Position numbers and translations under genes: made by a program
Shown here: piece by piece, positions 1,116 to 25,196 of the stretch
Layout of the letters: the number at the start of each line of letters is the position of its first letter
Numbering within the stretch: the stretch's first letter is position 1
Origin: Oscillospiraceae bacterium
GTDB lineage: Bacteria; Bacillota; Clostridia; Oscillospirales; Acutalibacteraceae
Length of the DNA stretch: 26,900 nt
Direction of reading: 5' to 3'
Assembly: GCA_021640185.1 (NCBI GenBank)
Contig: JAJXDX010000002.1
Location: forward strand, 1 to 26,900
Notes under the pieces: generated by a model
What the model was told of the DNA's origin: nothing
What the model saw: the letters and a program-made list of their open reading frames with translations, nothing else
Databases searched by the model: none

Positions 1116-1688
1116 ATGCCGGCAAAAGCGAAGGTCACCAAAGAAATGATCGTTGACGCGGCTTTTGCGATCGCCCGGGAAACGGGGGCGGAAAACATCA
1201 ACGCAAGGACCGTATCGGAACGGCTGCACTGTTCCACGCAGCCCGTCATGTATCATTTCGCGACGATCGAGGAGCTGAAACGGACGGTCTATGAAAAGGC
1301 AGATCTTTACCATTCGGCATATCTGATGGAGATGAAGCGGCCGCCGAAGGGCGCCGCGCTCGGGATCGGCATGAATTATATCCGCTTTGCGATCGAAGAG
1401 CCGTACTTGTTTCGTTTTTTGTTCCAGTCGGACCGTTTCGGCGGGAAAACGCTGCTTGAGCTGATCGATGCCGAGGAGCTTTCTCCTGTTCTTTCGGCGA
1501 TGCAGGGTGCCTTGGGGGTCGACAGGGAGCAGACCAAAAAGATCTTTCTGACGGTTTTTTTGTTTGCCCACGGGTATGCCAGCATCATCGCCAACAATGC
1601 CCTGAAATACGACGAGGAACTGATCGCCGCCCGGCTGGACCGGGCATACAGAGGTGCGATATCGGCGGCGCGGGAGGAAACGACATGA
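1116..1688 (+). CDS. TetR/AcrR family transcriptional regulator
   Basis: N-terminal HTH (IVDAAFAIARETGAENINARTVSERLHCSTQPVMYHF); C-terminal IGMNYIRFAIEEPYLFRFLF...LFAHGYA; RBS GAGGGG. Confidence 0.93.
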   Translation: MPAKAKVTKEMIVDAAFAIARETGAENINARTVSERLHCSTQPVMYHFATIEELKRTVYEKADLYHSAYLMEMKRPPKGAALGIGMNYIRFAIEEPYLFRFLFQSDRFGGKTLLELIDAEELSPVLSAMQGALGVDREQTKKIFLTVFLFAHGYASIIANNALKYDEELIAARLDRAYRGAISAAREETT

Positions 1689-2423
1689 AAAAGCTGTATG
1701 AGAAAAGCGAGCTGGCCTTTGCGCTCATGTGGGTCGCGCTCTATTGCGTTCTGCAGTCGGTGGCAGAGCCGCTGAATAAAACGATCGGGACCGAATACGC
1801 GGCAAGCGCCGCCTTTTGCCTTTTGCAGGCGATCGTTCTTTTCGTTTTTATCCGCAAGAACGGTCTGATGAAGCGGTACGGCCTTTGCCGGCCGCGTATC
1901 CGCCCGGCGGTTTTTCTATGATGTGCCGCTCGCTATTTTGGCGTCGGGGAACTTGTGGAACGGCGTCGCAGTCAACTACGCGCCGGCAGGGACGGTCTGC
2001 CGTGTCGTGTGTATGCTCGGCGTCGGCTTTTTGGAGGAGGTGATCTTCCGCGGGCTGCTGTTCACGGCCATCGCCAAGGATAATATCAAGTCTGCGGCCG
2101 TCATCTCCAGCGTGACCTTCGGCATCGGGCATATCGTTGATTTGATCAACGGCAGCGGCAGGGATCTGGTGGAAAACCTGTGCCAGATCGTTTTTGCGGT
2201 CGCGGTCGGTCTTTTGCTGGTCACGATCTTTTATCGCGGCGGCAGCCTGCTCCCCTGCATCCTCGTCCACGCGGCGATCGATGTGTCGGGCACGTTCGCC
2301 GACGATACAGGCCTTACCGCAGGGATGCGCCTGTGCCACGTCGCTGTCCTGACCGCGATCGCGGTCGCCTATACGCTGATCCTGACCAAAACGCTGCCGA
2401 AAAGGCGCAAAACAGAGGAGTGA
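1685..2423 (+). pseudogene. CPBP/CAAX-family intramembrane metalloprotease split by a frameshift near 1895
   Basis: Hydrophobic N-terminal ORF 1685-1921 overlaps the TetR stop (ATGA). A second frame open from 1896 reads VSARRFFYDVPLAILASGNLW and carries EEVIFRG, FGIGH and HAAID motifs. Confidence 0.8.
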
Positions 2424-2429
2424 GCAGCC

Positions 2430-3332
2430 GTGCAGATCGATCGGTTCTTCATCGACGGGGACATCCGGGGCGCCATCGCCTATATGCGCGCGCACGAGCA
2501 GTTCGCTGACGTTCTCCCTGCGTATGCCGCGCTTTTTGAAAACGCCGAATACCGCACATACGACGTGCCGGACGGGATCAACGACATCCTGCGGCGATAT
2601 CAGATCTATCTCCGGGACACGTTTTATTGCGGCGTGCCGGAGGCGGAGGCCGCAGACCGGCTGCTGGCGGGGCTGAGAGCACTGACCGGTCTGCCGGAGG
2701 CGGACGAGGCGGCCTTGGCGGGGCGGCTGGGGTCACTGTTCGCGGCGGCGGGCTATCATGCGCTGTTCGGCAAAACGCAGGGATATTACGGTCCGTATAT
2801 TTGGCGGGACACCGTCCCGACGGTTTACCGCGTCGAGCTGCCGGACGGCGCGGCGGAATATACCGTCAACATCCTGAAAGGCTTCGTGTTCCGGGGGTGG
2901 ATGGACTATCTGACCTTCGGGCGGCACGGCACGGGCGGCTGGACTTCGCCCGACGGCACGATCAACTGTGTCGCGCAGGCGTACGATCTCGGGAGTGAGC
3001 GGTTTTTGGTCTCGCTGCTGAAGCACGAGGCGCAGCACGCCGCGGATATGAAACGCTTCCCCGGCATCGCCCCGGCGGAGCTGGAATACCGGGCAAAGCT
3101 GGTGGAGCTTTGCTATTCCGGCGATCCGGGGCTGCTGCAAAAGTTTTTGTCGGAAGCGGACGAAAGCAAAACGGGCGACAGCCACGCGGTCGCGTCTGTG
3201 CGGATCGGGCGTGCGTTCGCCGGCGCAGATCCCGGATCGCTGCCCGACATCCGGGCGCGGGCGCTGGAGTCGTTCCATGCGCATACGAAAGAGATGGAAG
3301 AAAAATACGGAGGAAAACGAAATGGACGATAA
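2430..3332 (+). CDS. Hypothetical protein with HExxH...E zinc-metallopeptidase-like motif
   Basis: GTG start after GAGGAG; LKHEAQH followed by ELEYRA; operonic spacing. Confidence 0.75.
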   Translation: MQIDRFFIDGDIRGAIAYMRAHEQFADVLPAYAALFENAEYRTYDVPDGINDILRRYQIYLRDTFYCGVPEAEAADRLLAGLRALTGLPEADEAALAGRLGSLFAAAGYHALFGKTQGYYGPYIWRDTVPTVYRVELPDGAAEYTVNILKGFVFRGWMDYLTFGRHGTGGWTSPDGTINCVAQAYDLGSERFLVSLLKHEAQHAADMKRFPGIAPAELEYRAKLVELCYSGDPGLLQKFLSEADESKTGDSHAVASVRIGRAFAGADPGSLPDIRARALESFHAHTKEMEEKYGGKRNGR

Positions 3333-4236
3333 AGCCGGCATCACCGCCCTGATGAGCGCGTTCGGCCGGGCGTTCCATGCGGAGAACGAAGCGCATCCCG
3401 TTTTTGCCGATCATGCTGCCAAAGAGCTGATGACGGCAGAGGAATATGCCGCCGTCGGGGACTATCTCCTCGGCGGCGCGCAGTTCTTCGCACCGGAGAC
3501 CGACCCCGCGGCTTTGGCGCCGAAGGCGCTGCTGCGCCGGCTGGTGAACGACCATATCGCGCCGTCGCCGCTCAGCCGTGCGGTGTATACGGAGCGGGCG
3601 CTGAAAACGGCCGCCCTGACCGGCACGGGGCAATACGTCATCCTCGGCGCGGGGCTGGACACCTTCGCTTTTCGGGAAACGGCGTTTTTGGCGAAGCACC
3701 GGGTGTTCGAGGTCGATCACCCGCTGACGCAGGCGGACAAAAAGGAGCGGATCGCCCGCGCCGGCCGAACGATCCCCGCCGGCCTGACGTTCGTCCCTGC
3801 GGACTTTACCGAGGACAGCCTGACGCAGCGCCTGACCGCCGCCGGCTTCGACTCGTCCGCAAAAGCTTTTTTCTCGTGGCTCGGGGTGACCTACTATCTG
3901 CCGGCCGAAACGATCGACAAAACGCTTGCCGAGTTGTCTGCACTTTGTGCGGACGGCAGCACGCTTGTGTTCGACTATCCGGACGAGGGGTTCTTCGCCG
4001 CGCCTGTGCGGCGTGTGCAAAACACGATCATGATGGCCAAGGCCGGCGGCGAACCGATGCGTTCGGCGTTTTCCTACGGTGAGCTTGAAGCGCTGCTGGA
4101 AAAGCACGGCTTTTTGATCTATGAGCTGCTGACGCCGGCGGATATCCAAAGGGACATCATCGACAGGGCGGGCGCGGAGATGAAAGCCTTTGAACACGTC
4201 AACTACTGCCTTGCGGTCAGAAAGGAGCAGGCCTGA
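3322..4236 (+). CDS. Class I SAM-dependent methyltransferase, LCM (leucine carboxyl methyltransferase-like) family
   Basis: QYVILGAGLDTFAFR, VFEVDHPLTQADK, WLGVTYYL and LVFDY motifs; ATG 3322 after GGAGG. Confidence 0.92.
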   Translation: MDDKAGITALMSAFGRAFHAENEAHPVFADHAAKELMTAEEYAAVGDYLLGGAQFFAPETDPAALAPKALLRRLVNDHIAPSPLSRAVYTERALKTAALTGTGQYVILGAGLDTFAFRETAFLAKHRVFEVDHPLTQADKKERIARAGRTIPAGLTFVPADFTEDSLTQRLTAAGFDSSAKAFFSWLGVTYYLPAETIDKTLAELSALCADGSTLVFDYPDEGFFAAPVRRVQNTIMMAKAGGEPMRSAFSYGELEALLEKHGFLIYELLTPADIQRDIIDRAGAEMKAFEHVNYCLAVRKEQA

Positions 4237-4787
4237 TGGAAACAGCGACGAAACGCGCCCCTTACACGATCGGGCGCGCACAGCCGGAGGATGCCGCCGC
4301 GCTGTTGGCGTATCTGAAGATCATCGGCGGGGAGACGGATAACCTCAGCTTCGGCCCGGAGGGCGTGCCGCTGACCGAGGAGGCCGAGCGTGCCTATCTT
4401 GCCATGCAGGCGCAGTCGTGCGACCACATCCAGCTGTTGGCCAAGGCGAACGGGGAGATCGTCGGCACCGCGAGCCTTGACCGCAAGCCGGGGCGGATGC
4501 ACCACCGCGCCGAGTTCGGCATCAGCCTGAAAAAAGCGTGGTGGGGCTGCGGCGCGGCGGCCGTTTTGGCGCAGGGCGTGCTCGACTTCGCGCGGGCGGC
4601 CGGGATAGAGCAGGTCGATCTGGAAGTGCGCAGCGACAATGCCCGCGCGATCGCGCTGTATAAAAGGCTCGGGTTTCGCCGGCTGTGTACGTTCCCCGGT
4701 TTTTTCAAGATCGGCGGCGAGCCGATCGACTTCGATCTGATGATCTTGACTTTCGGTCCGGTCGCGCAGGATAAAGATCAACGGTAA
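4236..4787 (+). CDS. GNAT family N-acetyltransferase
   Basis: AEFGISLKKAWWGCGAA (acetyl-CoA motif A) and LEVRSDNARAIALYKRLGF (motif B); RBS AAGGAG. Confidence 0.92.
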   Translation: METATKRAPYTIGRAQPEDAAALLAYLKIIGGETDNLSFGPEGVPLTEEAERAYLAMQAQSCDHIQLLAKANGEIVGTASLDRKPGRMHHRAEFGISLKKAWWGCGAAAVLAQGVLDFARAAGIEQVDLEVRSDNARAIALYKRLGFRRLCTFPGFFKIGGEPIDFDLMILTFGPVAQDKDQR

Positions 4788-4809
4788 AAACCGTATGGGA
4801 GGAAGACGA

Positions 4810-5175
4810 ATGGATAAACTGATCGGCTGCTGCGGACTGGACTGCGAGACCTGTGACGCCCGGATCGCAACGGTAAAAAACGACGACGCGCTGCGCGAAA
4901 AGACCGCCGCGCTTTGGACGAAGCTCAACGGCGTGCCGATCGCACCGGATCAGATCTGCTGCACCGGCTGCCGGGTCGACGGCGCAAAAACGCCGTTTTG
5001 CGAAATGCTCTGCCCCGTGCATCGCTGCGTGCGGGAAAAGGGCTTCGCTACCTGTGCGGACTGTGGGCAGACGGACGGCTGCCCGACGCTGGGGATCATC
5101 GCCGCGAACAGCCCGTTCGTGTTGGAGAACCTTGACCGGCTCCGTAAAGCGCAGCCGGTTGACAGCGGCCGGTAG
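4810..5175 (+). CDS. Cys-rich small protein, DUF3795-like
   Basis: GCCGLDCETC...CTGC...CEMLCPVHRC...TCADC...GC pattern; ATG 4810 after GGAGG. Confidence 0.8.
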   Translation: MDKLIGCCGLDCETCDARIATVKNDDALREKTAALWTKLNGVPIAPDQICCTGCRVDGAKTPFCEMLCPVHRCVREKGFATCADCGQTDGCPTLGIIAANSPFVLENLDRLRKAQPVDSGR

Positions 5176-5198: not shown

Positions 5199-5241
5199 AA
5201 AAAAAGAGGCGTGGCCGGCAAAAGCACGGTCACGCCTCTTT
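5199..5241 (-). terminator. Rho-independent terminator of the GRE operon (may be bidirectional); the stem contains the isomerase stop codon
   Basis: AAAGAGGCGTGGCCG (5203-5217) pairs with CGGTCACGCCTCTTT (5227-5241); A7 run at 5199-5205 gives a U-tail on the minus strand; lies between convergent genes. Confidence 0.85.
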
Positions 5242-6288
5242 CGGCGGCAGACAAACGGCACACGTCAGCGTCCCTTCGGTGTGCAGGACGACGCGGCCGG
5301 CCGCCGCGCACGGCAGAAAGAAGCAGTCGCCCCGCCGGAGCGGCCGGCGCTCCGGCCCAAACGTGATCTCCCCTGCCCCGTCTGTGACGACGCAGACGGC
5401 GGGCGCCGAACGCAACGTATGCGCGCAGGCGGTGAGCGTTACCCGCTCGATGGCGAAGCAGGGCGTGTCGGCGTAGGAGATCAGGCTTTCCCGAAGGCAG
5501 CCGCCCGACCGCCCGATCACCTGCGGCGTGCGCCGGGCGCGGGCAACGGCGGCTTCGCCGTGGACGGAGAAGTCGAACACGTCAAGTGCGGTGTCCGCGT
5601 CAAGGCCGAGATACATCTCCCGGTCGCTCAGCGTGTAGTCGGCGCAGCGGCGCTCCGGCTGAACGGTGAAGTCCGTCGGCTCCTGCACCTCGAGCATCAG
5701 GCAGCCCGCGCCGATCGCGTGGATCATGCCGGCCGGGATGAAGAACACGTCGCCCGGTCGCACGGGGACCTCGTTGAGCAGCGAGACCATGGCATTTTCG
5801 TCCGTTTCGCTGCGCTGCGCCGCGTCGGCGAGCTGCGCCTTCGTCGTCGCGTTTTTGAAGCCGAGATATATCCGTGCGCCGGGACGGGTGGCCAAAACGA
5901 GCCAGCTTTCCGCCTTGCCGTGATCGCTGTGCAGATGCCGGCGGGAGAATGCCCGATCCGGGTGCGCCTGCACCGGCAGACGCACGGCACTGTCGAGCAG
6001 CTTGACCAGCACGCCGAGCTCGCGGCGGCTACCGAGCAGCGCCTGCCGGTGATCGCGGGACAGGTCGTCGAAATATCCCCCGCCGTCCGCCAGACGGGAC
6101 ACGCCCTCCCGCTCGCTGCGGCCGGCGGGACCGAGCGCACGCACGGCAGAGGCGATCCATTCCTCCGGTGTGTGGCCGTCGGCCGAGCCGTCGCCGAGGA
6201 AGGCGCCGAACCCGGCGCCGCCGGTGTATACGCGCCACACACGGTCGCGCAAAAAGAACAGCGGCCGGGCAAAGCGACGGTCATCCAT
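5230..6288 (-). CDS. Type I mannose-6-phosphate isomerase-like cupin (sugar-phosphate isomerase, substrate uncertain)
   Basis: LVKLLDSAVRLPVQAHPD, GKAESW, IPAGMIHAIGAG and EVQEPTD metal/catalytic motifs; ATG 6288 after GAGGGG. Confidence 0.88.
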   Translation of the reverse strand: MDDRRFARPLFFLRDRVWRVYTGGAGFGAFLGDGSADGHTPEEWIASAVRALGPAGRSEREGVSRLADGGGYFDDLSRDHRQALLGSRRELGVLVKLLDSAVRLPVQAHPDRAFSRRHLHSDHGKAESWLVLATRPGARIYLGFKNATTKAQLADAAQRSETDENAMVSLLNEVPVRPGDVFFIPAGMIHAIGAGCLMLEVQEPTDFTVQPERRCADYTLSDREMYLGLDADTALDVFDFSVHGEAAVARARRTPQVIGRSGGCLRESLISYADTPCFAIERVTLTACAHTLRSAPAVCVVTDGAGEITFGPERRPLRRGDCFFLPCAAAGRVVLHTEGTLTCAVCLPPKEA

Positions 6289-6299
6289 GCGTTTTCCCC

Positions 6300-7673
6300 T
6301 CATCGGTCAAGATAGTGGATCAGCGACTGCGCCGCGGCAAGATCCGGCACGGCGCCGGCCGCTACCGCGGCGAACAGCGCCGCGCCGAATGCGGCCTCCT
6401 CCCGGTGCGACGGGACGGACAGCGGCAGCCCGAACGCGGCCGAAAAACGCGCGGCGAGCGGAGCGTTGTGCCGGATGCCGTTGCCCGAGCCGATCAGGTG
6501 TACGGGCCTTTGCGGCAAAAGCGGCATTATCCCGGCGTACAGGCCGTGCAGTTCGCTGACGATGCCGTTCATCACGCCGTCGCACAGCGCGGCCATGGTA
6601 AAGTTGTCGATGCCGATGCCGGTGATGCTGCCGCGGCGCTGCGGATCGCTGCGGGTGCCGCAAAACGCCGTGTCGACCGTCAGCGGGCTGCCGTTCGGGC
6701 GGTAGTCCGCCATCAGCCGATCCATGGCCGGATAGGCGCTTTCGACCGGCTGCCCGGTGACGGCGGCGGCGATGTCGCGCAGTGCACGCTCCAATATCGC
6801 ATAAGCGCGCCCGCCGCACAATGACGAGCCGGCAAGCAGAAGAAGGTCGTCGGTCAGCGGCCGCAGCTCGAGCTGCCCGGCCGCTGCCTGCGCCGCCGCC
6901 CGTGGCACGGCGCAGGAGATCTGGCTGCCGGTGCCGACGTTGACGAGCACGCTGTGGGCAAGATCCTGCACGGAGCCGAGGACGCTCGCCTGATTATCTC
7001 CGATGGCCACGGCCACCGGCACGCCATGCGCCGTGCGGCCGAGGGTGGCGTAGCCGGACGACACGTCCGGGAAAAACGCCGGATCCATCCCCGCGGCGCG
7101 GATGGCCGCCGTGTCGAACTGCCCGCGGGCAAGGGAGAACAGGCCGATGCTCGCGGCGTCCGACGGGTCGAGCAGCGGCGTTTTGCGCCCGGTCAGCGCC
7201 ATGGCGCACAGGTCGTGGATCGTGCAGAACGTGACTGCGCCGGGCGGGATCAGGCCGTTGACCGTGGCATAAAAATGCGTGACCGCGCCGTAGCCGGTGG
7301 CAAGCGGATAGCCGGTCGCCGCGGAGAGCCATTCGGCGTAGGTCTTGCCGTCGCGGTACGGCAGGTCGCCGCGGCCGTCCTGCCAGATCGTCAGCGGGCC
7401 GACGGGTCGCCCGTCGGCAGCGAGATACACGATGCCGTGCATCTGTCCGGTAAGGCCGACGGCGGCGACGTCCCCGTCGGCCGCGAGCGCGGCCGCGATC
7501 CGGTGCAGACGGGCGACCAGTGCGGCGGCGTTTTGCTGCTTTTCCCACGGTTCGGCCGCAGGGAGGAACGTGCCGTTTTGCTCGGTGATCGTTTGCACGA
7601 TCTGCCCGGTGGCCGCATCGCACGAAATGCCGCACAGCGACGTCGTGCCGATATCCAGTCCGATGAGCTTCAT
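6300..7673 (-). CDS. FGGY family carbohydrate kinase, sedoheptulokinase-like
   Basis: IGLDIGTTS, LTGQMHG, IWQDGRG, LATGYG, IGDNQAS, VNVGTGSQIS, GSGNG and EEAAFGAA motifs; ATG 7673 after GAGGT. Confidence 0.9.
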   Translation of the reverse strand: MKLIGLDIGTTSLCGISCDAATGQIVQTITEQNGTFLPAAEPWEKQQNAAALVARLHRIAAALAADGDVAAVGLTGQMHGIVYLAADGRPVGPLTIWQDGRGDLPYRDGKTYAEWLSAATGYPLATGYGAVTHFYATVNGLIPPGAVTFCTIHDLCAMALTGRKTPLLDPSDAASIGLFSLARGQFDTAAIRAAGMDPAFFPDVSSGYATLGRTAHGVPVAVAIGDNQASVLGSVQDLAHSVLVNVGTGSQISCAVPRAAAQAAAGQLELRPLTDDLLLLAGSSLCGGRAYAILERALRDIAAAVTGQPVESAYPAMDRLMADYRPNGSPLTVDTAFCGTRSDPQRRGSITGIGIDNFTMAALCDGVMNGIVSELHGLYAGIMPLLPQRPVHLIGSGNGIRHNAPLAARFSAAFGLPLSVPSHREEAAFGAALFAAVAAGAVPDLAAAQSLIHYLDR

Positions 7674-7683
7674 GAGATCCACC

Positions 7684-10053
7684 TCAGCACAGGGCGGTCG
7701 ACTGCAGGTCGAGCCGCCGGATGATATCCTGCTGCACGGCAGGCGCCAGATCGAGGAAATTGACGAACGTGCCGTGGATGCGCATGATGTACACGCCGGA
7801 GGGCGCGTATTTCTGCGGATCGGCCAGCACGCGGCGCAGCGTCTCCGGGGTGGTGACGTTGAGGTACAGGTAGAACGGGGCGACCTTCTGCGGATCGCGC
7901 GCGCCGAAGAACAGCGGCCGGATCACCCGGCGCATAAGATCCAGCCCCTTGCCTTCCGCCGTCGGCGCGGTGAAGAACTTGGGATCGATCCCGAGATGCG
8001 AGGCATAGCCGCCGTCCATTTTTTCGAACGGGAGCTGCAGCGTCGACACCATCCGGAAGCCCATGCCCCGGTCGGCCTCGCCATACAGCGGATCGACGCC
8101 GTAGTTGAGCTGCTCGCGGGCGTGGCGGCCGTCCGGCGTCGCGCCGACCCAGTAGCCGTAGGTCAGGTGCGTGGTCGGGCTGGCCCAGTCGGCGCGGAAG
8201 GGCTGCCCGAGATAGTTCTCGTGTGCGGTCACCATGTCCGAAACGCGGGCGACGATCGCGGCTGCCTCGGCGTCCGCCGTCGGATCCGCGTTGCCGAATT
8301 TCGGGGCGGCTTTAAGGAACGCGTGCAGCTCTTCGTAGCCCGCAAAGTCGGCACGCAGGGCATCGAGCAGCGTGTCGGCATCCTCGGGGCGTTCCCGCAG
8401 CAGACGGTCGACGGCGACGAAGCTGTCCGCCATGACGCTCAGGCCGTGGATCAGGCAGCCGCTGCCGTTGTATGCCGTGCCCCGGTGCACCGTGTCGCGC
8501 ATATCGTAGCCGCTGTCCGCGCCGCCCATGAACACGCTGAGGAACGGCACGCGCCGGCAGCCGATCGCCCGCGAGGCACCGTCGGCCGCAGCACACATCC
8601 GCCCGATGCATCCCTCGAGCACGGCATAGAACCGCTCGCGCAATCGCGGCAGCAGCTCCCGCCCGGAGAGCTGCGGGATATCGAGGATCTGCCGGCCGGT
8701 GATGAGCGAGCGTCCGCCGTTGAGCGTCAGCTCCAGGATCTTCGGCATATTGAGCCAGCTGTTGGTCGTGTTGCCGTTGTCCTTGCCCATGATCAGCGGC
8801 TCCTGACAGCCCGCGACGGCATAATCGGCCAGATCGGCCTCGCACACGCCGCGTCCGCGCAGGACGCGGAACACGGAGGTGTCGTTGAACAGCGACGGCG
8901 TCAGTACGCCGGGCGAGAAAAAGAACCGTCCCATCGCTTCGTACAGCGCATCCGGTGAGCCCTCGTGCAGCTTCGTCGACAGGATCGGCTGCGGCAGGTT
9001 CATGTCCAGATAGGCGTCCATCAGCGCATAGGTGGTCTCGTTCGTCAGGTCGTTGCCTGCGGTATCGCGTCCGCCGACGAGCAGGTTTTGTGAGATCGCC
9101 CAGCTCCGGTCACCGACGTTGAAGAACACGAGGAAGTGTTTGAACAGCGCCGCGGCCTCCGCGCGGGACAGGCCCTCCTTTTGGCGGTACGGCTCGAAGA
9201 TGCGGTCGGCGTTGCCGACGGAGAAGGCGAACGGGTTCGGCGCCTGCTCTAAGCACATGACCTCCCACAGCAGCATGAATGTCTGGATCGCCTCGAACAG
9301 GGTGTCGCACGGCTGCTCCGGCACCTTGCGCAGCGTGCGCTCCATGCGTGCGAGCCGCGCGGCGCGCTCCGGCGCGGCCGTGCGCTGCAGCTCTGCCGCC
9401 AGATCGGCATAGCGGCGCGCGAGCAGGAGCGCGCCGTCCACGGTCAGGCGCATGGCGGCGAAGTTTTGTTTTTTCTCCGGATCCGTCTCCGCCGCCTGTC
9501 GGTCGTCCAGCGCGGCGCGCACGGCGGCAAGGCCGTGCGCCAGCGCCGGACGGAAGTCCGGGATGACGTGGCCGGTGACGGATTCGACGAAAAACGCCAC
9601 CTCGGCGGTCTCCGTTTCATATTCGCGGTACACCGCGCGCAGGTCGCGCACGCTCTCGCTTTGGCAGGTGAACTGACGCACCCGGTCGATGCGCTCGGGC
9701 GTCAGCTCCCCGTTCGGCTCGATGTCGTCGAACACCGCCGTCGGGTCGCAATAGCCGGAGAACGTTTCCACCCGAAAAGCGGGATCGATCAGCGCATAGC
9801 TGCGTGCGAACGCATCCGATTGGCTGCCAGCGAACACGGCGTTCTCGCCGATCGAGAGCGGCAGCTCCTGCAAAATGGCGTACAGCTCCCGCGCCGCGCG
9901 CATCTCCCGCGGCTCTCCGGCGAAGTCGTCGGCGTGGTCGCACGCGATCTCGCGCGCCAAAAACCAGCCGTCCAGCCGCGTTTTGGCTCGTTCCTCCCGG
10001 AACAGCGCTTTTGCCGCTGCCGTGATCTTTTCCGCATCGTATCTGTGTTCCAT
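7684..10053 (-). CDS. Glycyl radical enzyme (PFL-like superfamily) with divergent active-site loops
   Basis: 789 aa; GHVIPDF, SQNLLVGG, Cys loop AGCQEP (Cys416), PKFGN, ATPDGR, C-terminal Gly loop IMRIHGTFVNF (Gly761); adjacent to an activase. Confidence 0.93.
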   Translation of the reverse strand: MEHRYDAEKITAAAKALFREERAKTRLDGWFLAREIACDHADDFAGEPREMRAARELYAILQELPLSIGENAVFAGSQSDAFARSYALIDPAFRVETFSGYCDPTAVFDDIEPNGELTPERIDRVRQFTCQSESVRDLRAVYREYETETAEVAFFVESVTGHVIPDFRPALAHGLAAVRAALDDRQAAETDPEKKQNFAAMRLTVDGALLLARRYADLAAELQRTAAPERAARLARMERTLRKVPEQPCDTLFEAIQTFMLLWEVMCLEQAPNPFAFSVGNADRIFEPYRQKEGLSRAEAAALFKHFLVFFNVGDRSWAISQNLLVGGRDTAGNDLTNETTYALMDAYLDMNLPQPILSTKLHEGSPDALYEAMGRFFFSPGVLTPSLFNDTSVFRVLRGRGVCEADLADYAVAGCQEPLIMGKDNGNTTNSWLNMPKILELTLNGGRSLITGRQILDIPQLSGRELLPRLRERFYAVLEGCIGRMCAAADGASRAIGCRRVPFLSVFMGGADSGYDMRDTVHRGTAYNGSGCLIHGLSVMADSFVAVDRLLRERPEDADTLLDALRADFAGYEELHAFLKAAPKFGNADPTADAEAAAIVARVSDMVTAHENYLGQPFRADWASPTTHLTYGYWVGATPDGRHAREQLNYGVDPLYGEADRGMGFRMVSTLQLPFEKMDGGYASHLGIDPKFFTAPTAEGKGLDLMRRVIRPLFFGARDPQKVAPFYLYLNVTTPETLRRVLADPQKYAPSGVYIMRIHGTFVNFLDLAPAVQQDIIRRLDLQSTALC

Positions 10054-10075
10054 AGCTCTCTTCTCCTTTGTGTCA

Positions 10076-10798
10076 TCAAGTATGTACGACGGACAGCCCG
10101 TGGCTGCGCAGGATCTGCTCGTATCGCTGCCGTTCCTCCTCGGTCACGAAACCGTCCCGGAAAGTGTACGGTCGGCCGCATTTTTCCCATTTCTCGCGAC
10201 CGTATTCGTGGTACGGCAGCAGCTCGAAGCGTATGCGGGCGCCATCGCACTGCCCGAACAGCGCGGCGAAGCGCTCCATATCCTCTGCCGAGGCGTTGAA
10301 GCCGTGGATCAGCGGGATCCGCACCAGCACGCAGGGACACGCGGCCAGCGCCGCGCGCAGGTTCTGCACGATCTGTTCGTTGCCCATGCCGGTGAAGCGC
10401 CGATGGATCTCGCTGTCGTGGTGCTTGCAGTCCATGATCAGCTCGTCGAGCAGAGGGAACAGCTCCGGCAGCCGCGCGGCCGTGCCGTTCGTCTCGATCG
10501 CCGTGCCGATGCCCCGCTGCCGCAGCAGCGTGAGCGCCGCCTTGAGCGGCGCGAACTGGCAGGTGCATTCGCCGCCGGTGAACGTGACCCCGCCGCCGTC
10601 AAAAAACATCGCCCGGCAGCGTTCGGCTTCGTCGGCCAGTGCCTCCACCGATACGCCGATGCCGCCTTTGTGCGGCATCCCCTCCGGGTTCGCGCACCAC
10701 GGGCAGGCCAGATCGCAGCCCTGCAAATGGTACACCAGGCGGTTGCCGCGCCCGTCCTGTGCGTAGTTGAAGCCTTTTTGAAACAAACGCAGTTCCAT
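10076..10798 (-). CDS. Glycyl-radical activating enzyme (radical SAM), short form without ferredoxin insert
   Basis: QDGRGNRLVYHLQGCDLACPWCANPE (CxxxCxxC), GGGVTFTGGEC, IETNG, RIPLIHGFN, LLPYH. Confidence 0.95.
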   Translation of the reverse strand: MELRLFQKGFNYAQDGRGNRLVYHLQGCDLACPWCANPEGMPHKGGIGVSVEALADEAERCRAMFFDGGGVTFTGGECTCQFAPLKAALTLLRQRGIGTAIETNGTAARLPELFPLLDELIMDCKHHDSEIHRRFTGMGNEQIVQNLRAALAACPCVLVRIPLIHGFNASAEDMERFAALFGQCDGARIRFELLPYHEYGREKWEKCGRPYTFRDGFVTEEERQRYEQILRSHGLSVVHT

Positions 10799-10817: not shown

Positions 10818-10840
10818 ATTAGTTAACTCGATCAACTAAT
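10818..10840. promoter_or_regulatory. ROK/XylR-type operator
   Basis: ATTAGTT-N9-AACTAAT with perfect arms, between the -10 box and the RBS of the activase gene; resembles XylR-family operators (TTAGTT...AACTAA). Confidence 0.8.
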
Positions 10841-10849
10841 TGCACATAC

Positions 10850-10877
10850 AGTATACCGCATCCTGCGAAAAATGCAA
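10850..10877 (-). promoter_or_regulatory. Putative sigma-A promoter of the GRE operon
   Basis: Minus strand TTGCAT, N16, TATACT. Confidence 0.65.
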
Positions 10878-10914: not shown

Positions 10915-10943
10915 TTGCCAAACGGCGCGCGGGAGAGTATACT
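10915..10943 (+). promoter_or_regulatory. Putative sigma-A promoter of the ROK regulator
   Basis: TTGCCA, N17, TATACT. Confidence 0.7.
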
Positions 10944-10974: not shown

Positions 10975-12132
10975 ATGGGCGAGCCGCAGAACCAAAACAC
11001 GCTCAAGAGCAGCAACCGCGCGCGGCTGCTCGAACGCATCCGGCGGCAGCCGACGGCGCGGGCGGAGCTCGCGCGGCAGCTGGGGCTGACGAAGTCGGCC
11101 GTGACGCTGCTGACGGGCGAGATGATCCGGGAAGGGCTGCTGCGCGAGGCCGGGCCGGCGGAGAAAAGCGCGGCGCCGGGGCGGACATCGATCCTGCTCG
11201 ATATCGTGCCGGATCACGCCTTTGCGGTGGGGATCGCGCTGCACCGCCGTGTTTGCCGGGTGTGCCTGACGGATCTTTCGGCGCGGCCGATCGCGGACGA
11301 GGAGCTTCCGACGCAGGCGCTCCCGTCGGGGGACGCGGCGCTGGCGCGGCTTTGGCAGACGGCGCTGCGACTGATGCGGCAGACCGGGGCAGATCCGGCG
11401 CGCTGCGTCGGCATCGGGACGAGTGCGCCCGGCCCGCTCGACCATGCGGGCGGGCGGATCTTGCAGCCGACGGAGTTCGCGCAGTTCTGCGGACTGCCGG
11501 TCGTCGAGCGCTTGCATCAGCGCGCCGGGCTGCCGGTATGTTTGGAGAACAACGCCGTCGCGCTGGCGCTGCTCGACCGTCTGCGGCGCGGCGGCGGGGA
11601 CGGGAGCGTGCTGTTCACCGTGGTGGCGGACGGCATCGGCAGCGCGCTGCTGCAGGACGGCCGGCCGTTCCGCGGCGGGCGCGGCTTCGCCGGAGAGCTG
11701 GGGCACCTCTGCGTGGAGCCGGACGGGCTGCGCTGCACCTGCGGTGCGCGCGGCTGTTTGGAGCAGTATGCCACGCTGCGGGCGCTGCGCGCGCGGCACG
11801 GCTTCGATCGCTATGAGGAGATCGTCGACCGCGCCGAGGACGGTGACAGCCGGGCGCAGGCCGTGCTGCAGGATCTGACCGGGCATCTGGGGCTGGCGCT
11901 CGTCGATGCCGTCGATCTGTTCGACCCGGAGACCGTCGTGCTGTACGGCGAATACGGCTATCGGGCGACGGTGCTCACGGCGCGGCTGGCGGAGTATATC
12001 GCGGAGCATTCGCTGATTTGCCGGGCGCATCCGGTGGCGGTGCTGCCTTCGCCGCTGACGGCGGCGGATGCCGGGGCGGCGGCCGCCGTTTCGGCGCTCG
12101 ATGCGTTTTTCGCCCGCGGCGGGCGGCTTTGA
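10975..12132 (+). CDS. ROK family transcriptional repressor (XylR/NagC-like)
   Basis: N-terminal HTH (ARAELARQLGLTKSAVTLLTGEMIREGLL), DGIGS, AGELGH, Zn motif CTCGARGCLE. Confidence 0.93.
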   Translation: MGEPQNQNTLKSSNRARLLERIRRQPTARAELARQLGLTKSAVTLLTGEMIREGLLREAGPAEKSAAPGRTSILLDIVPDHAFAVGIALHRRVCRVCLTDLSARPIADEELPTQALPSGDAALARLWQTALRLMRQTGADPARCVGIGTSAPGPLDHAGGRILQPTEFAQFCGLPVVERLHQRAGLPVCLENNAVALALLDRLRRGGGDGSVLFTVVADGIGSALLQDGRPFRGGRGFAGELGHLCVEPDGLRCTCGARGCLEQYATLRALRARHGFDRYEEIVDRAEDGDSRAQAVLQDLTGHLGLALVDAVDLFDPETVVLYGEYGYRATVLTARLAEYIAEHSLICRAHPVAVLPSPLTAADAGAAAAVSALDAFFARGGRL

Positions 12133-12266: not shown

Positions 12267-13655
12267 TCAGTCGGGCGCGTCCCGGTGGCGGAAGCTTGCG
12301 GGCGTTTGACCGGTCTTGGCCTTGAAGGTCTTGCAGAAATGCGACTGATCGTAAAACCCCGTCTGTGCCGCGATCTTGTCAAGCGGCTCGTCCGTGTTGC
12401 GCAAAAGGCTCTTCGCGGCCATGATGCGCACGGAAGAGATGTATTGCCCGATCGACCGGCCGGTCTGCTCCCGAAACAGGCGGGAGATGTACGAGGGCGA
12501 CATATGGATCAGCGAAGCGAGCTCGGCCGTGCGGATCCGCTGGGCATAGTGGCTGTGGATGTATTCCATGATGCTGTTGACCGAGGGTGAGCCGTTCGTC
12601 TGCTCAGCGGCGTCGATCAGCGGGATGCAGAACGTGTGCCACTCGTTCGCCTTGGCGATATACAGGCTGTGTCGGATGAGGGCATAGGTATCGGTGTTGT
12701 ACAGGCCGATGCCGACGGAACCGATCCGGTCGCTGCGCAGGGCAAAGGTGATGTGCGCCTTGCGGCGGTAAGGATGCAGATCTGTCCGGTTATGCTCATC
12801 GGGGGCGAACCACACCTGATAGGGGGTCGTTTCGCGGGCGAACAGTTCCATGTGCGGCAGGCGCTGCTCCCGGCAGGACGGCTGCGCGGAGCAGCGCAGC
12901 GCGTCGCCCGTGCGCGGCACGTCGATGTAATGCCCCGCGGTGAAGAACTGTGCGAGCAGCTGTGCGCCGTCGGGCGATACCTGCGGATCCTGCGACCAGA
13001 TCTGCAGGTCGGTCACCGCCACCCGCCGCCCCTGCGGCAGCTCGATGCCCCGGTCGGCCGCCGAGGTGATGCAGACTTTGTCCATGTGCATCAGGATGCG
13101 GCGGTATTCCTCGCTGATGTCGCGAAACAGCTTCACCAAAAGCAGCACGAGCTGGCTGCGGATGCACAGCTTGTAGCCCGGGCTGCGGCGGTCGGTCTCC
13201 TTGATCAGCTCCTGCAGGATCGCATGGACCGCGCCGTACGGCTCGATATGCTGATGGCGCGGCAGGAACACGTTGATGTTCTCGTGCGCGACCGCCGTGT
13301 ACGGCAGCGTCATGTCCGCCGGGTCGGCCGGCGGCTCAAGATCCTTCGGCATCCGCAGGTGCATATGGACGGCGAAGAACTCCGCCGTTTCCGACAGCAC
13401 GGTGAACGTGTAGGTCAGGCAGGGCGGGAAGAACACCATGTCGTTCTCCTGCAGCAGGAACTCCTTATATTCATCCTGATAGTCGATCAGGTCGAACCGT
13501 ACGCTGCCGCGGATCAGGAAAAACAGATAGTCGTCACCAAGCCATTCGCGGCGCATTTCGCCGCCGCTTTTGACCTCGTGACGGAGCGAGACGACACTGG
13601 GGAGCAGATAAAGCATCTCGTCCATGTTCATCTCGTCGATATACGAATATCTCAT
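12267..13655 (-). CDS. AraC family transcriptional regulator (cupin-like N-terminus, ~155-aa insert, C-terminal double HTH)
   Basis: 462 aa; ELASLIHMSPSYISRLFREQTG...IAAQTGFYDQSHFCKTFKAKTGQTPASFR; ATG 13655 after AAGGA. Confidence 0.93.
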   Translation of the reverse strand: MRYSYIDEMNMDEMLYLLPSVVSLRHEVKSGGEMRREWLGDDYLFFLIRGSVRFDLIDYQDEYKEFLLQENDMVFFPPCLTYTFTVLSETAEFFAVHMHLRMPKDLEPPADPADMTLPYTAVAHENINVFLPRHQHIEPYGAVHAILQELIKETDRRSPGYKLCIRSQLVLLLVKLFRDISEEYRRILMHMDKVCITSAADRGIELPQGRRVAVTDLQIWSQDPQVSPDGAQLLAQFFTAGHYIDVPRTGDALRCSAQPSCREQRLPHMELFARETTPYQVWFAPDEHNRTDLHPYRRKAHITFALRSDRIGSVGIGLYNTDTYALIRHSLYIAKANEWHTFCIPLIDAAEQTNGSPSVNSIMEYIHSHYAQRIRTAELASLIHMSPSYISRLFREQTGRSIGQYISSVRIMAAKSLLRNTDEPLDKIAAQTGFYDQSHFCKTFKAKTGQTPASFRHRDAPD

Positions 13656-13700
13656 GAAAAAAGTTCCTTTCCGGCCGTCGAGCGGGTGCGGTATGCTTCC

Positions 13701-13729
13701 AGTATAGCACATGGACGCCGAGAGCGCAA
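13701..13729 (-). promoter_or_regulatory. Putative extended -10 promoter of the AraC gene
   Basis: Minus strand TTGCGC, N17 ending TG-C, TATACT. Confidence 0.65.
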
Positions 13730-13944
13730 GCGCGGATATTACGATCGGATGTGGCGGCAGATGCGGAAAAAACGGTATTTTTGCGGAAAAACTTTCCTTT
13801 TGAGCGATGATTTATCGGTCATTGAGCACGATATGGAATAAATCATACGATCACGCGCTTGGTTTTTACAATGACAAACGGCGGCGGATGATGGTATCCT
13901 ATCATCAGACGGAATACGACGATCACGGGAAAGGAGCAGCAGCC

Positions 13945-16734
13945 ATGCACAGACGGTTTTTCTCCGTCGTCCTCGTCCTTCTGCTCACCGCGGGCCTGTA
14001 TGTACAGGCGGCCGCCGGCGAAGCGCCCGGCGGGGCGGCCGAAGCGAGCGCCGCCGAAGCTGCCGGAACGGCCGAGGGCGAAGGCAGCTACGGGCAGTAT
14101 CTTTCGCTGTCCGACGGCGCGGACGTTCGCGGCGAGGCCATCGTCCTGCCCGCCGGGCAGGCGGAGCAGACCGCGGGCAGCACGACGTGGACGGCGGATA
14201 TCCCGCAGACCGGGCGCTATCACCTGAAGGTGCGCTATCGGCCGGATGCATCCTCCTTTGCCGAGATCTTGCGGCGGCTGCTGGCGGACGGCGCGGTGCC
14301 GTACCGGGAGCTGGACGGCTTCGCGCTGCCGCAGGAATATCGCGACGACGGCCCGGTCAAGACCGACATCTACGGCAACGAGATCCGTCCGCAGCAGGTC
14401 GCTGCCGGGCGGATCACCGAAAATTATCTCTTCGACTATGCCGGGGCATACAGCGAACCGCTGAGCCTTTGCCTGACGCAGGGCACGCATCGCCTGACGC
14501 TGGAGGATATCTCCGGCAAAGCGGAGGTGATCGCGCTGATCCTCGTCCCGGCGGGCGAGCTTGCCGACTATTCGGCCTATGCCGCGCGCCATGCGCAGCA
14601 GCCGGTCTATACCGGCGAGCCCATCACGCTGGAGGCCGAGCAGTCGGCCTATCGCTCCGACCAGACGCTGTACGCCGTCGGCGACAAGTCGTCGCCGCTG
14701 GTATCGCCGAGCGAGATCGGCAAGATCCGCCTCAATACCGTGGGCGGTTACCGCTGGGCCACGGTGCACCAGTATATCGTCTGGAACGTGACGGTGCCGA
14801 GCGACGGGCTGTACACGATCTCGTTCAAAGTGCGGCAGAACGTGAACGCCGCACAGCGATCCGGCCGCATCCTGTACATCAACGGCGAGATCCCCTTCCG
14901 CGAGGCGGCACGGCTCACCGTGCCGTATTCCACCCGGTGGCAGCGGCTCTGCCCCGGCGACGGGGAATGGCGTTTTTATCTGCACGAGGGCGTCAACGAG
15001 ATCCGTCTGGAGGCGACGCTCGGACAGAACGATGCGACGCTGCGCACGCTGGAGGACAGCGTGCAGACGCTCAACACGATCTACCGCAAGCTGCTGATCG
15101 TCATCGGCCCCCAGCCGGACACGGCGCGGGACTATAAGCTCGATAAGCTCGTCCCGGAACAGCTCGCCCGGATGGCCGAGCAGGCCGAAACGCTGCGTGC
15201 TTGTGCCGATGCGCTGGAGGAATTCAACGGCGGGCGCAACGCCGGCGTGGGGCTGTTGCACACGATGGAGCGTCAACTCAAACGGATGAGCGACGATCCG
15301 GACAAGGTCGCGGGCGAGTTCTCGCAGTTCAAAACGAACATCGGCGCGCTTGGCACGTGGCTGTCCACGGCCAAGCAGCAACCGCTGGCCGTCGACTGTC
15401 TGACCGTCGGCGGCAGTCCGGCGGAGGAGCCGCCGCTCAACGCCGGCTGGTTCGCCCAGACCGCGTTCGATCTTAAGGAGTTTCTCTGCTCTTTCGTGAC
15501 CGATTACCGCAGCATCGGCGAGATGGAGGAAGGCTCCTCTTCCTCGCTGAAGGTGTGGGTGTCCTCCGGCCGCGATCAGGCGCAGGTGCTGCGCAGCATG
15601 ATCAGCGACAGCTTCACGCCGGCCGAGGGCGTCCACGTGCAGCTGGAGCTGGTGGCGAACGATGCGCTTTTGCCCGCGGTCGTGGCCGGCACCGGCCCGG
15701 ACGTGAGCGTCAGCACCGGTGACGTCATCAACTTCGCCATGCGCCACGCCGCCTGCGACCTGACGCAGATGCCCGGCTTCGCGGAAGTCGCGGCGCGCTT
15801 CCCTGCCGCGCGGCTCATCCCGCTGCGCTATGTCGGCGGGATCTATGCTCTGCCGGAGAACTTGGCGTTCTCCGTGCTGTTCTATCGCACGGACATTTTG
15901 GCGGAGCTGGGGCTGAGCGTGCCCGAAACGTGGGACGATGTGCGCGCCATGACCTCGGTGCTGTCCAAAAACAATATGGAGTTCGGCCTCCCTGCGGGCA
16001 ACGGCTCGTTTTTGCTGCTGCTGCGGCAGAGCGGCGTGCCGATCTATGAGGGCGACGGGATCTCCTGCTTGCTCGATCAGCCGGATGCGGTCAACGTTTT
16101 CCGCAGCTACACCGCCCTGTACGCCAACTACGGTCTGCCGCTGTCTTACGATCTGGTCAACCGCTTCCGCACGGGCGAGATGCCGGTGGCCGTGGCCGAT
16201 TTCGGCATCTACAACACCCTGTCGGTGGCCGCGCCGGAGATCCGCGGGCTGTGGGCGTTCACCAAGGTGCCGGGCACGCCGCGGGCGGACGGCACCGTCG
16301 ACCATACGACGCTGGCCGGCGGCTCGGCCGCCATGCTTTTGGCGAACGCCGCCGACCGCGATGCGGGCTGGACGTTCCTCAAATGGTGGACGTCGCCCGA
16401 CGTACAGGCCCGCTACGCGCGGGAGCTGGAGAGCGTCCTCGGTCCGTCCGGCCGCTATACCTCGGCCGCGACGGAGGCGTTCGCCCGTTCGTCTTGGTCG
16501 GCCGAGGATATGCGGGTGCTGCAGGCGCAGCTTGCCGAGAGCAGCGCGATCGAGCAGGTGCCGGGCGGTTATCTGATGACGCGGCATCTGGACAATGCTT
16601 TCCGCAATGTGGTCTATAACGCGAAGGATCCGATGGATATGCTGTTCGACTATGTGTATAAGATCGACCGCGAGCTGACGGAAAAGCGGCAGGAGTTCGG
16701 CCTGCCCGTCGCCGCGCAGGAGGGACAGGGATGA
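13945..16734 (+). CDS. Large (929 aa) extracellular solute-binding protein: signal peptide, two CBM-like beta-sandwich modules, helical linker, family-1 sugar-binding domain
   Basis: ATG after AAGGAG; hydrophobic signal ending VQAAA; WTADIPQTGRYHLKVRY and LEAE...WNVTVPSDGLYTISFKV repeats; C-terminal LFYRTDILAELGLSVPETWDD, FRTGEMPV, WTFLKWW. Confidence 0.88.
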   Translation: MHRRFFSVVLVLLLTAGLYVQAAAGEAPGGAAEASAAEAAGTAEGEGSYGQYLSLSDGADVRGEAIVLPAGQAEQTAGSTTWTADIPQTGRYHLKVRYRPDASSFAEILRRLLADGAVPYRELDGFALPQEYRDDGPVKTDIYGNEIRPQQVAAGRITENYLFDYAGAYSEPLSLCLTQGTHRLTLEDISGKAEVIALILVPAGELADYSAYAARHAQQPVYTGEPITLEAEQSAYRSDQTLYAVGDKSSPLVSPSEIGKIRLNTVGGYRWATVHQYIVWNVTVPSDGLYTISFKVRQNVNAAQRSGRILYINGEIPFREAARLTVPYSTRWQRLCPGDGEWRFYLHEGVNEIRLEATLGQNDATLRTLEDSVQTLNTIYRKLLIVIGPQPDTARDYKLDKLVPEQLARMAEQAETLRACADALEEFNGGRNAGVGLLHTMERQLKRMSDDPDKVAGEFSQFKTNIGALGTWLSTAKQQPLAVDCLTVGGSPAEEPPLNAGWFAQTAFDLKEFLCSFVTDYRSIGEMEEGSSSSLKVWVSSGRDQAQVLRSMISDSFTPAEGVHVQLELVANDALLPAVVAGTGPDVSVSTGDVINFAMRHAACDLTQMPGFAEVAARFPAARLIPLRYVGGIYALPENLAFSVLFYRTDILAELGLSVPETWDDVRAMTSVLSKNNMEFGLPAGNGSFLLLLRQSGVPIYEGDGISCLLDQPDAVNVFRSYTALYANYGLPLSYDLVNRFRTGEMPVAVADFGIYNTLSVAAPEIRGLWAFTKVPGTPRADGTVDHTTLAGGSAAMLLANAADRDAGWTFLKWWTSPDVQARYARELESVLGPSGRYTSAATEAFARSSWSAEDMRVLQAQLAESSAIEQVPGGYLMTRHLDNAFRNVVYNAKDPMDMLFDYVYKIDRELTEKRQEFGLPVAAQEGQG

Positions 16735-17663: not shown

Positions 17664-17691
17664 TGCGATATTCGATGGAGGGCAAGAGCCG

Positions 17692-20672: not shown

Positions 20673-20706
20673 GCCGGCACGGGACGACGGGCAAAAGGAG
20701 GAGCAA

Positions 20707-23229: not shown

Positions 23230-23232
23230 GCC

Positions 23233-25078: not shown

Positions 25079-25196
25079 GCCGCCCGTCCGCGCCCGGAAA
25101 AGAAAGGGGGATGCCCGGCAAAGCGAACGGATGACCGTGCGTGCTTGGAGAGGCACCGAAAACACTACTACATCGTTCAACAAAGGAGTAGGATCC

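Follow-up and report, generated by a model that had tools for sequence, protein, structure and literature searches.

An operon for an uncharacterised glycyl radical enzyme, a sedoheptulokinase-like kinase and a cupin suggests a radical route of sugar catabolism in Clostridia

A 26,900-nucleotide stretch of the genome of an Oscillospiraceae bacterium (assembly GCA_021640185.1, contig JAJXDX010000002.1, positions 1 to 26,900; hereafter the window) carries a four-gene operon for a radical S-adenosylmethionine (SAM) activase, a glycyl radical enzyme (GRE), an FGGY-family kinase and a cupin related to phosphomannose isomerase (PMI), with a divergently transcribed gene for a ROK-family repressor. 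Comparison with homologues indicates that the GRE represents a genuine, widespread and uncharacterised clade outside every characterised GRE family, and its residues resemble those of a sugar eliminase or isomerase. The reading we favour, with a probability of roughly 0.45, is that the GRE would carry out a radical C-O elimination or ring-opening on a free sugar of the D-manno/fructo/arabino series, followed by terminal phosphorylation by the kinase. A first-pass annotation of the window had proposed an undescribed radical sugar-catabolic pathway for this operon, and its overall interpretation is supported by the analysis presented here.

The operon and its gene products

The genes and the two catalytic loops of the GRE are as follows.
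10076..10798, minus strand: GRE activase, radical SAM family (240 aa, short type; PF04055)
7684..10053, minus strand: GRE (789 aa; PF02901; H162, C416-Q-E418, R758-I-H-G761-T-F)
8802..8808, minus strand: codons of the GRE Cys loop, CxE motif (C416 at 8808-8806, E418 at 8802-8800)
7771..7782, minus strand: GRE Gly loop R-I-H-G761, then T-F; non-canonical
6300..7673, minus strand: FGGY kinase, sedoheptulokinase-like (457 aa from its ATG; GTG at 7682 is an alternative start; PF00370/PF02782)
5230..6288, minus strand: PMI-like cupin (352 aa from an ATG backed by a ribosome-binding site (RBS); ATG at 6303 is an alternative start)
10975..12132, plus strand: divergent ROK-family repressor (PF00480 plus helix-turn-helix)

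The four co-oriented open reading frames, described earlier as lying 10-22 nt apart, were recovered unchanged, with gaps of 22, 10 and 11 nt along activase-GRE-kinase-cupin for the starts chosen here, confirming that the operon is real. Profile searches assign its products to the radical SAM/GRE activases, PF02901, FGGY_N/C and the cupins (with weak ManA similarity), and the divergent protein to ROK; none of the five reaches an NCBIfam function cut-off. The spacing leaves no room for small-subunit genes, and no aldolase or dehydrogenase family was found among the 20 window proteins scanned, as the first reading of the window had held.

A GRE outside the characterised families

The GRE matches PF02901 at 325 bits, with no match to the Gly-radical model PF01228, and falls far below the cut-offs of all nine NCBIfam GRE models. 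Its best score is 229 bits against a cut-off of 678; other scores are 153 against 1109 for PRK09983, 54 against 994 for TIGR01255 (pyruvate formate-lyase, PFL) and 44-171 against 1000-1150 for the CutC, HypD, HpsG, HpfG, IAD and HPAD models. An AlphaFold2 model (pLDDT 84, pTM 0.90) matched solved GREs in Foldseek with probability 1.00 and a TM-score of about 0.8, consistent with the 10-stranded β/α barrel, and structure-based identity was 16-24% among the 36 chains listed, propanediol and glycerol dehydratases being the top matches. In a FastTree phylogeny of 47 rows, 19 core members form their own clade (branch length 0.97, support 100) apart from E. coli YbiW and PflD; clustering with a characterised enzyme, which would have spoken against the first-pass proposal, is thus not seen. 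Full-length matches among 50%-identity representatives stand at 58%, then 41-42%, then 32-34%, with most others at 27-33%.

In its sections consulted here, the review PMC13450708 (June 2026) tallies six C-O eliminases, CutC, three C-S lyases and three isomerases, and notes whole GRE clades without a function. Those sections contain neither a family with the RIHG loop seen here nor, as the first-pass annotation had supposed of the field at large, a characterised GRE partnered by a kinase and a cupin. Literature searches, spanning listings and the opening lines of abstracts, found no RIHG-loop GRE family, which may figure as an unnamed cluster of a sequence similarity network in papers or supplements elsewhere. 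Besides this GRE, the source genome has five PFL-like GRE loci (contigs C71, C91, C263, C349 and C440) that are 24-30% identical to it, four of them with an activase match on the same contig.

Catalytic residues, Gly loop and candidate pocket

Residues H162, C416 and E418 align with His164, Cys433 and Glu435 of glycerol dehydratase and with His165, Cys441 and Glu443 of YbiW, and all three are invariant in a core set of 129 sequences (74 from GTDB or the window and 55 metagenomic, with identity down to 39%). C416-Q-E418 is present in 145/145 full-length sequences, and R758 and G761 in every one of the 144 that extend to the C-terminus. The CxE motif is given as a mark of GRE eliminases and isomerases in sections 5.6 and 5.7 of PMC13450708. 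The Cys loop contains a single Cys (CQE), as opposed to the two adjacent Cys required for PFL and TdcE, and the enzyme is therefore not a PFL.

The Gly loop is a feature that the first-pass annotation had missed. It reads RIHGTF in 120/120 top homologues, while an RxHG loop occurs in only 7 of 98 full-length representatives, all seven with an EQxPxP pocket motif. The canonical fingerprint, RVxG[FWY]x6-8[FL]x4Qx2[IV]x2R (of which RVxG[FWY] is given in parts of PMC13450708 and PMC11528403), is broken by Ile in place of Val and Thr in place of the aromatic residue; the downstream L-x4-Q-x2-I-x2-R spacing is intact. Portions of the GRE literature attribute activase specificity to the sequence of the Gly loop. 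A 746-aa relative with 41% identity (P0130) has an altered Gly loop and no catalytic Cys motif, and is possibly a pseudo-enzyme.

Alignments yield ten candidate polar or aromatic pocket residues (E269, Q270, N273, R316, W318, N428, T430, W433, H536 and D622). These are invariant across the 129 core sequences together with E157, H162, C416, E418, T429, N431, C533 and L534, and such a polar pocket with two Trp would suit a polyhydroxy substrate. A sister clade (n = 16) carries R428, G622 and F/V533 instead. The sister GREs (loci L083-L098; P0133, P0140, P0141 and P0146) have an RVHG loop and Arg at the position of YbiW R453, and lie beside L-fucose-isomerase-like proteins, XylB, D-psicose 3-epimerase and IolB; one locus (L083) adds a RuBisCO-like protein, a class II aldolase and E1 dehydrogenase genes. 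This clade probably has a second unassigned function.

The kinase is a core partner and the cupin an accessory one

Partner conservation was assessed in the 80 best GTDB loci, 55 of them well flanked. Within 3.5 kb of the GRE an activase is encoded in 77 of the 80, a kinase in 67, the cupin in 41 and a ROK protein in 20; the counts for the well-flanked loci are 55, 50, 31 and 13. In a sample drawn evenly from the class (19 loci), the kinase lies directly 3' of the GRE in 15 and after two inserted genes in a 16th. The kinase is thus the core partner, and its conservation beside GRE orthologues agrees with the earlier proposal. The proposed isomerase partner holds for the 31 well-flanked loci that have the cupin and is accessory; other isomerases or epimerases lie beside the GRE elsewhere, and in three genomes the cupin orthologue is located away from the GRE.

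The activase has its CxxxCxxC motif at C28/C32/C35 and scores 164 bits against a TIGR02494 cut-off of 174. The kinase, labelled 'Sedoheptulokinase' automatically in the ESM Atlas (score 0.99), stays under every curated kinase cut-off (XylB, 95 against 380). Its GQMHG (Met-His) and GDNQ signatures recur in 66/66 sequences, and the Met-His signature is common to XylB-I, AraB-III and GntK according to parts of PMC3245297. No characterised bacterial sedoheptulokinase-like kinase was found in literature searches.

The assignment of the cupin to the PMI type held as far as likeness goes: it scores 69 bits against a TIGR00218 cut-off of 116, matches 1qwr with an E-value of 6e-18 and retains the Q/H/E/H metal-ligand pattern of PMI. 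It is, however, a paralogue distinct in the tree from the housekeeping ManA of the source genome, and reads FTVQPE where ManA has TYR. The separate ManA carries that arginine, which is absent from all 55 motif-matched cupins (of 59 associated with GREs). We assume a phosphate-binding role for the TYR arginine of PMI, for which a literature search found no source. The cupin is predicted to be an accessory aldose-ketose isomerase.

Cupin paralogues also occur in other settings. At four loci (L215, L216, L225 and L226) one ends an iolG-iolD-iolE operon; in a quick tree only, these form a clade separate from the GRE-associated cupins. A recurrent cluster (L218-L221), belonging to a sugar pathway that is likewise unassigned, encodes an L-fucose-isomerase-like protein, an FAD oxidase, a 361-aa Cys-rich protein, a class II aldolase, a PfkB kinase, IolB, a cupin paralogue lacking the Arg and an XylB-like kinase, with an electron-transfer flavoprotein in L219. 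A separate rare-sugar operon of the source genome (L210, contig C376) holds an FGGY kinase, a D-psicose 3-epimerase that passes its NCBIfam cut-off, an L-fucose-isomerase-like protein and DeoR.

Regulation and surroundings of the operon

The regulatory features are listed below.
10819..10839, no strand: palindromic operator TTAGTT-N9-AACTAA, between the -10 box and the activase RBS
10850..10877, minus strand: putative operon promoter TTGCAT-16-TATACT, read by eye
10915..10943, plus strand: promoter-like site for the ROK gene, TTGCCA-17-TATACT (scan, 10/12 matches)
5199..5241, minus strand: intrinsic terminator overlapping the cupin stop codon (hairpin 5203-5241 plus U-run)

A single promoter and operator had been proposed. 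Of these the operator found support beyond the window, while the promoter was seen by eye and is absent from the scan listing. Using the pattern derived from the window, with the window itself excluded and 72 of the 80 loci evaluable, 8 of the 14 loci whose ROK gene is divergent have the palindrome (at most one mismatch) 5' of the activase gene, as against 1 of the 54 lacking ROK and none of the 4 with a co-oriented ROK gene. This recurrence at ROK-divergent loci, and barely at those lacking ROK, makes it very likely that the palindrome serves as the operator for ROK. ROK control, seen here and in the 13 well-flanked loci, is a minority arrangement, with AraC or GntR regulators at other loci. 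The terminator is as strong as first described (-32.7 kcal/mol, z = -4.74, with 0/200 shuffles as stable), is missing from the listing of a consensus terminator scan and is probably bidirectional.

Genes for TetR, a CAAX protease, an LCM-type methyltransferase, a GNAT protein and a DUF3795 protein (1116-5175) converge on this terminator and appear unrelated. On the other side (12267-26819), an AraC regulator gene is divergent from an eight-gene carbohydrate ABC cluster that includes a 975-aa binding protein, four permeases, an NHL/Yip1 protein, a DUF5696 protein and a 562-aa lipoprotein without a Pfam match. We considered the AraC/ABC cluster as part of the GRE system and rejected it, as it is not kept beside the GRE across the 80 loci.

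Distribution and variant loci

In an even sample of 400 genomes from the class, 24 have a member of this GRE family; at least 10 taxonomic families are represented, and Claveliimonas bilis is a cultured carrier of a homologue. Related GREs of an Atribacteria type (the cluster of their representative includes proteins named Ca. Atribacteria) are 40-42% identical and have an RIHGQY loop. Upstream of the GRE these loci carry genes for a PMI-like cupin and for an ABC system with a binding protein similar to the glucose-binding protein 2b3b (397 bits), together with a true XylB (528 bits against a cut-off of 380) in place of the sedoheptulokinase-like kinase; the GRE-kinase partnership therefore persists with a different kinase subfamily. 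At L099-L130, of this type, the activase gene is convergent with that of the GRE, and the two stop codons, on opposite strands, lie a few bases apart.

Many loci have housekeeping flanks only and no transporter. Elsewhere the neighbours of core GREs include D-lyxose isomerase (L146), L-fucose-isomerase-like proteins (L109 type), the D-psicose 3-epimerase family (L126, L133, L316) and HxlB (L126, L133). Genes for an E1/E2 dehydrogenase, an enzyme that could cleave a methyl ketose, adjoin the GRE in L122. Glycoside hydrolase (GH) genes are inserted between kinase and cupin (GH38, L316) and between GRE and kinase (GH172, L308, closest to the exo-α-D-arabinofuranosidase 8ic8), or come right behind the GRE (GH32, L307), or follow the kinase (GH32, L015). 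A GH5 mannosidase-like gene follows the cupin or kinase in L014, L027, L033 and L077, and mannosidase-type GH2 (L019), GH130 (L004, L135) and GH38 (L035, L036, L144, L311) are found nearby. By their annotations these hydrolases appear to converge on D-mannose, D-fructose and D-arabinose, sugars with a common D-arabino triad.

A proposed radical step on a free sugar

The data establish the gene set, the fold, the catalytic residues, the conservation of partners and the operator; the activity, reaction class, step order and substrate class we infer as follows. The substrate would be a free (unphosphorylated) monosaccharide, anhydro-alditol or alditol of the D-manno, D-fructo or D-arabino series, undergoing a step of the YbiW/PflD or glycerol dehydratase type. 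The activase would place the radical on G761, and a thiyl radical on C416 would then abstract hydrogen at a carbinol carbon whose hydroxyl is deprotonated by E418 (Glu-assisted ketyl formation). Cleavage of the neighbouring C-O bond would release water or the ring oxygen, with H162 or H536 protonating the departing oxygen, and return of the hydrogen would give a deoxy-ulose of the methyl-ketone type. The FGGY kinase would then phosphorylate the terminal CH2OH, after which the remaining breakdown could fall to housekeeping aldolase, transketolase or thiamine pyrophosphate-dependent enzymes, so that the product would enter central sugar-phosphate metabolism as the first-pass annotation envisaged. 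The cupin may serve as an optional aldose-ketose isomerase linking mannose-type aldoses with the ketose pool.

Three kinds of substrate seem about equally likely: fructopyranose or arabinopyranose (giving a product of the 6-deoxy-5-ketofructose type), 1,5-anhydromannitol or 1,5-anhydroglucitol (giving 1-deoxyfructose), and an alditol. Ring-opening of fructopyranose to 6-deoxy-5-ketofructose has a precedent in radiation chemistry. It would mirror the YbiW step as set out in parts of PMC13450708.

Several observations weigh against this proposal, and the argument that the substrate is unphosphorylated is a weak one. Among 50 cassette genomes, taken from 50 of the 80 loci, the FSA/transaldolase family (TAL_FSA; FSA, fructose-6-phosphate aldolase) was found in 12, and the operon has no aldolase, which leaves what becomes of a deoxy-ulose phosphate unexplained in most of them. 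In the known pathway FSA/transaldolase cleaves 1-deoxyfructose-6-phosphate, and the source genome itself holds an FsaA-like gene and a class II fructose-bisphosphate aldolase. Step order is a weak point too: YbiW R453, to which we ascribe a phosphate role, has N428 as its counterpart here, and E. coli PflD likewise lacks Arg at that position, having Leu. The invariant R316 could act as an anion binder. Of five kinase-less loci tested, three genomes have a kinase elsewhere and in two none was found; conversely, the kinase occurs in 5 of 400 genomes of the phylum, four of them without the GRE. Active-site loops are poorly modelled (pLDDT below 50 at 317-319 and 627-633). The recurrence of hydrolases is a matter of raw counts, and GH3, GH106-like, GH16, GH43 and GH116 genes are also nearby.

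Alternative readings

The order could instead be kinase first, with a sugar, anhydro-alditol or ketose phosphorylated in place of a phosphotransferase system (PTS) and the GRE acting on the phosphate like YbiW and PflD. The near-obligate kinase link is compatible with either order, and the only two sugar-acting GREs in the sections of PMC13450708 act on 6-phosphates. Besides R316, R158 is found in 34 of 42 distant core sequences, and all 16 sister-clade sequences carry Arg at the YbiW R453 position. Set against this are the Asn at 428 throughout the core clade, the scarcity of FSA, and the Met-His signature, typical of open-chain ketose or aldonate kinases according to parts of PMC3245297; we consider this order unlikely, if a serious contender. 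Distinctly unlikely, to our mind, is a GRE whose product is an ordinary ketose of D-threo configuration or a manno-aldose (of the xylulose, fructose or sedoheptulose series), made by radical chemistry new to GREs. Such a GRE might epimerise a heptose or rare hexose, remove one carbon from a sugar acid as formate or CO2, or bring about a 1,2-shift within a branched sugar, and the isomerase and kinase would then pass the product straight to the pentose-phosphate pathway or glycolysis. This would explain the missing dedicated aldolase or dehydrogenase; the isomerase and kinase types may define the lyxose/xylulose, mannose/fructose and manno-heptose/sedoheptulose series, the Gly loop is altered and C533 offers an invariant second Cys. 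The CxE motif and His set nevertheless indicate elimination, and C533 aligns with YbiW G561 and PflD V522, presumably facing away from the cavity by strand alternation. Nor are uronate or heptose genes a conserved feature of the neighbourhood, with single cases of UxaC (L308) and of UxuA (L212, next to a cupin orthologue), and such chemistry is without precedent in the sections of PMC13450708. If it were true, this new and aldolase-free reaction class, possibly involving C533, would make an otherwise unusable sugar available as an ordinary ketose or aldose and give many gut Clostridia and Atribacteria-type sediment bacteria a route into the pentose-phosphate pathway or glycolysis.

Elimination might alternatively break a C-N, C-S or C-OMe bond of an amino-, sulfo-, thio- or O-methyl-sugar. 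The catalytic set is that of CutC, IslA and HpsG as described in parts of PMC13450708, acidic D622 and E269 are invariant, and Atribacteria-type loci encode an SftI-related isomerase (144 bits against a cut-off of 700). The CutC, HpsG and HpfG cut-offs are, on the other side, far from reached, and genes handling sulfur, amines or methanol are not recurrent among the scanned neighbours, making this very unlikely. Structure-based identity to the C-S lyases IslA, IseG and HpsG is 19-20% for the chains listed. The sulfite-anchor sites of IslA (two Arg plus Gln), at the positions as we take them to be, correspond to His162, Gln/Ser158 and Asp622. Hardly credible, finally, is a GRE homologue that has degenerated beyond activation, leaving the operon as a mannose/fructose isomerase-kinase module. 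The broken RVxG[FWY] fingerprint, the missing PF01228 match and the distant relative P0130 would fit it, but C416, E418, R758 and G761 are kept throughout the sequences compared, an intact activase gene is adjacent in all 55 well-flanked loci, and, in the portions of the literature cited above, the sequence of the Gly loop is known to vary with activase specificity.

Four specific pathways were considered and rejected. An obligate FSA-dependent anhydroglycolysis is at odds with the same 12 of 50 genomes, and a DXS bypass, in which GRE and kinase make 1-deoxy-D-xylulose 5-phosphate, with dxs above its cut-off in 46 of the 50. Supply of 6-deoxy-5-ketofructose-1-phosphate to the archaeal aromatic (DKFP) pathway fails on 3-dehydroquinate synthase II, found in 0/51 genomes with positive controls in three archaea. 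Gap-filling in inositol breakdown was prompted by the iol-operon cupins: IolD orthologues occur in 16/51 genomes, the source genome (82% complete) gave none, and IolB and IolC are already present in 5/5 tested.

Significance

This is a common GRE family without an assigned function, present in genomes of the class and in Atribacteria-type environmental loci. Its loop departs from the textbook fingerprint and goes unrecognised by the Pfam Gly-radical model, so surveys that rely on motifs may count too few members. A third sugar-acting GRE, partnered by a kinase rather than by a PTS and aldolase, would add to radical carbohydrate catabolism in anaerobes of the human and herbivore gut, and would supply a first function for bacterial sedoheptulokinase-like kinases and for PMI cupins lacking the Arg. 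The dedicated activase, the ROK sensor and the cultured carrier C. bilis make the proposal directly testable.

Comparison with known systems

YbiW and PflD of 'anhydroglycolysis' (8id7, 8id0, 8yjo) have in common with the present enzyme the GRE fold, the CxE motif, a His at the YbiW H165 position, a sugar setting and a cognate activase. Structure-based identity to them is 20-23% (22% and 25% in sequence alignment) and their position in the tree is separate. The candidate pocket here differs (F/Y275, W318, N428, W433, H536, D622), as does the RIHGTF loop, and the partners are a kinase and a cupin, whereas those of E. coli YbiW and PflD are PTS and FSA. The B12-independent glycerol and 1,2-propanediol dehydratases (1r8w, 9rco, 5i2g), the top Foldseek matches, have the same His/Cys/Glu set at 21-24% identity with other pocket residues, and the operon described here encodes a sugar kinase and neither an aldehyde reductase nor a microcompartment. 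Its kinase has the Met-His and GDNQ signatures in common with sedoheptulokinase-like and XylB FGGY kinases and scores below their curated cut-offs, while the cupin has the fold and Q/H/E/H ligands of the type I PMI ManA (1qwr) without its TYR Arg. Both the RIHG-loop GREs and the aminoacyl radical enzymes (AAREs; parts of PMC11528403) depart from the canonical Gly fingerprint; in the latter Ala, Ser or Thr replaces the radical Gly, whereas here G761 is kept and its flanks are changed, with His before it and Thr, Gln or Met after.

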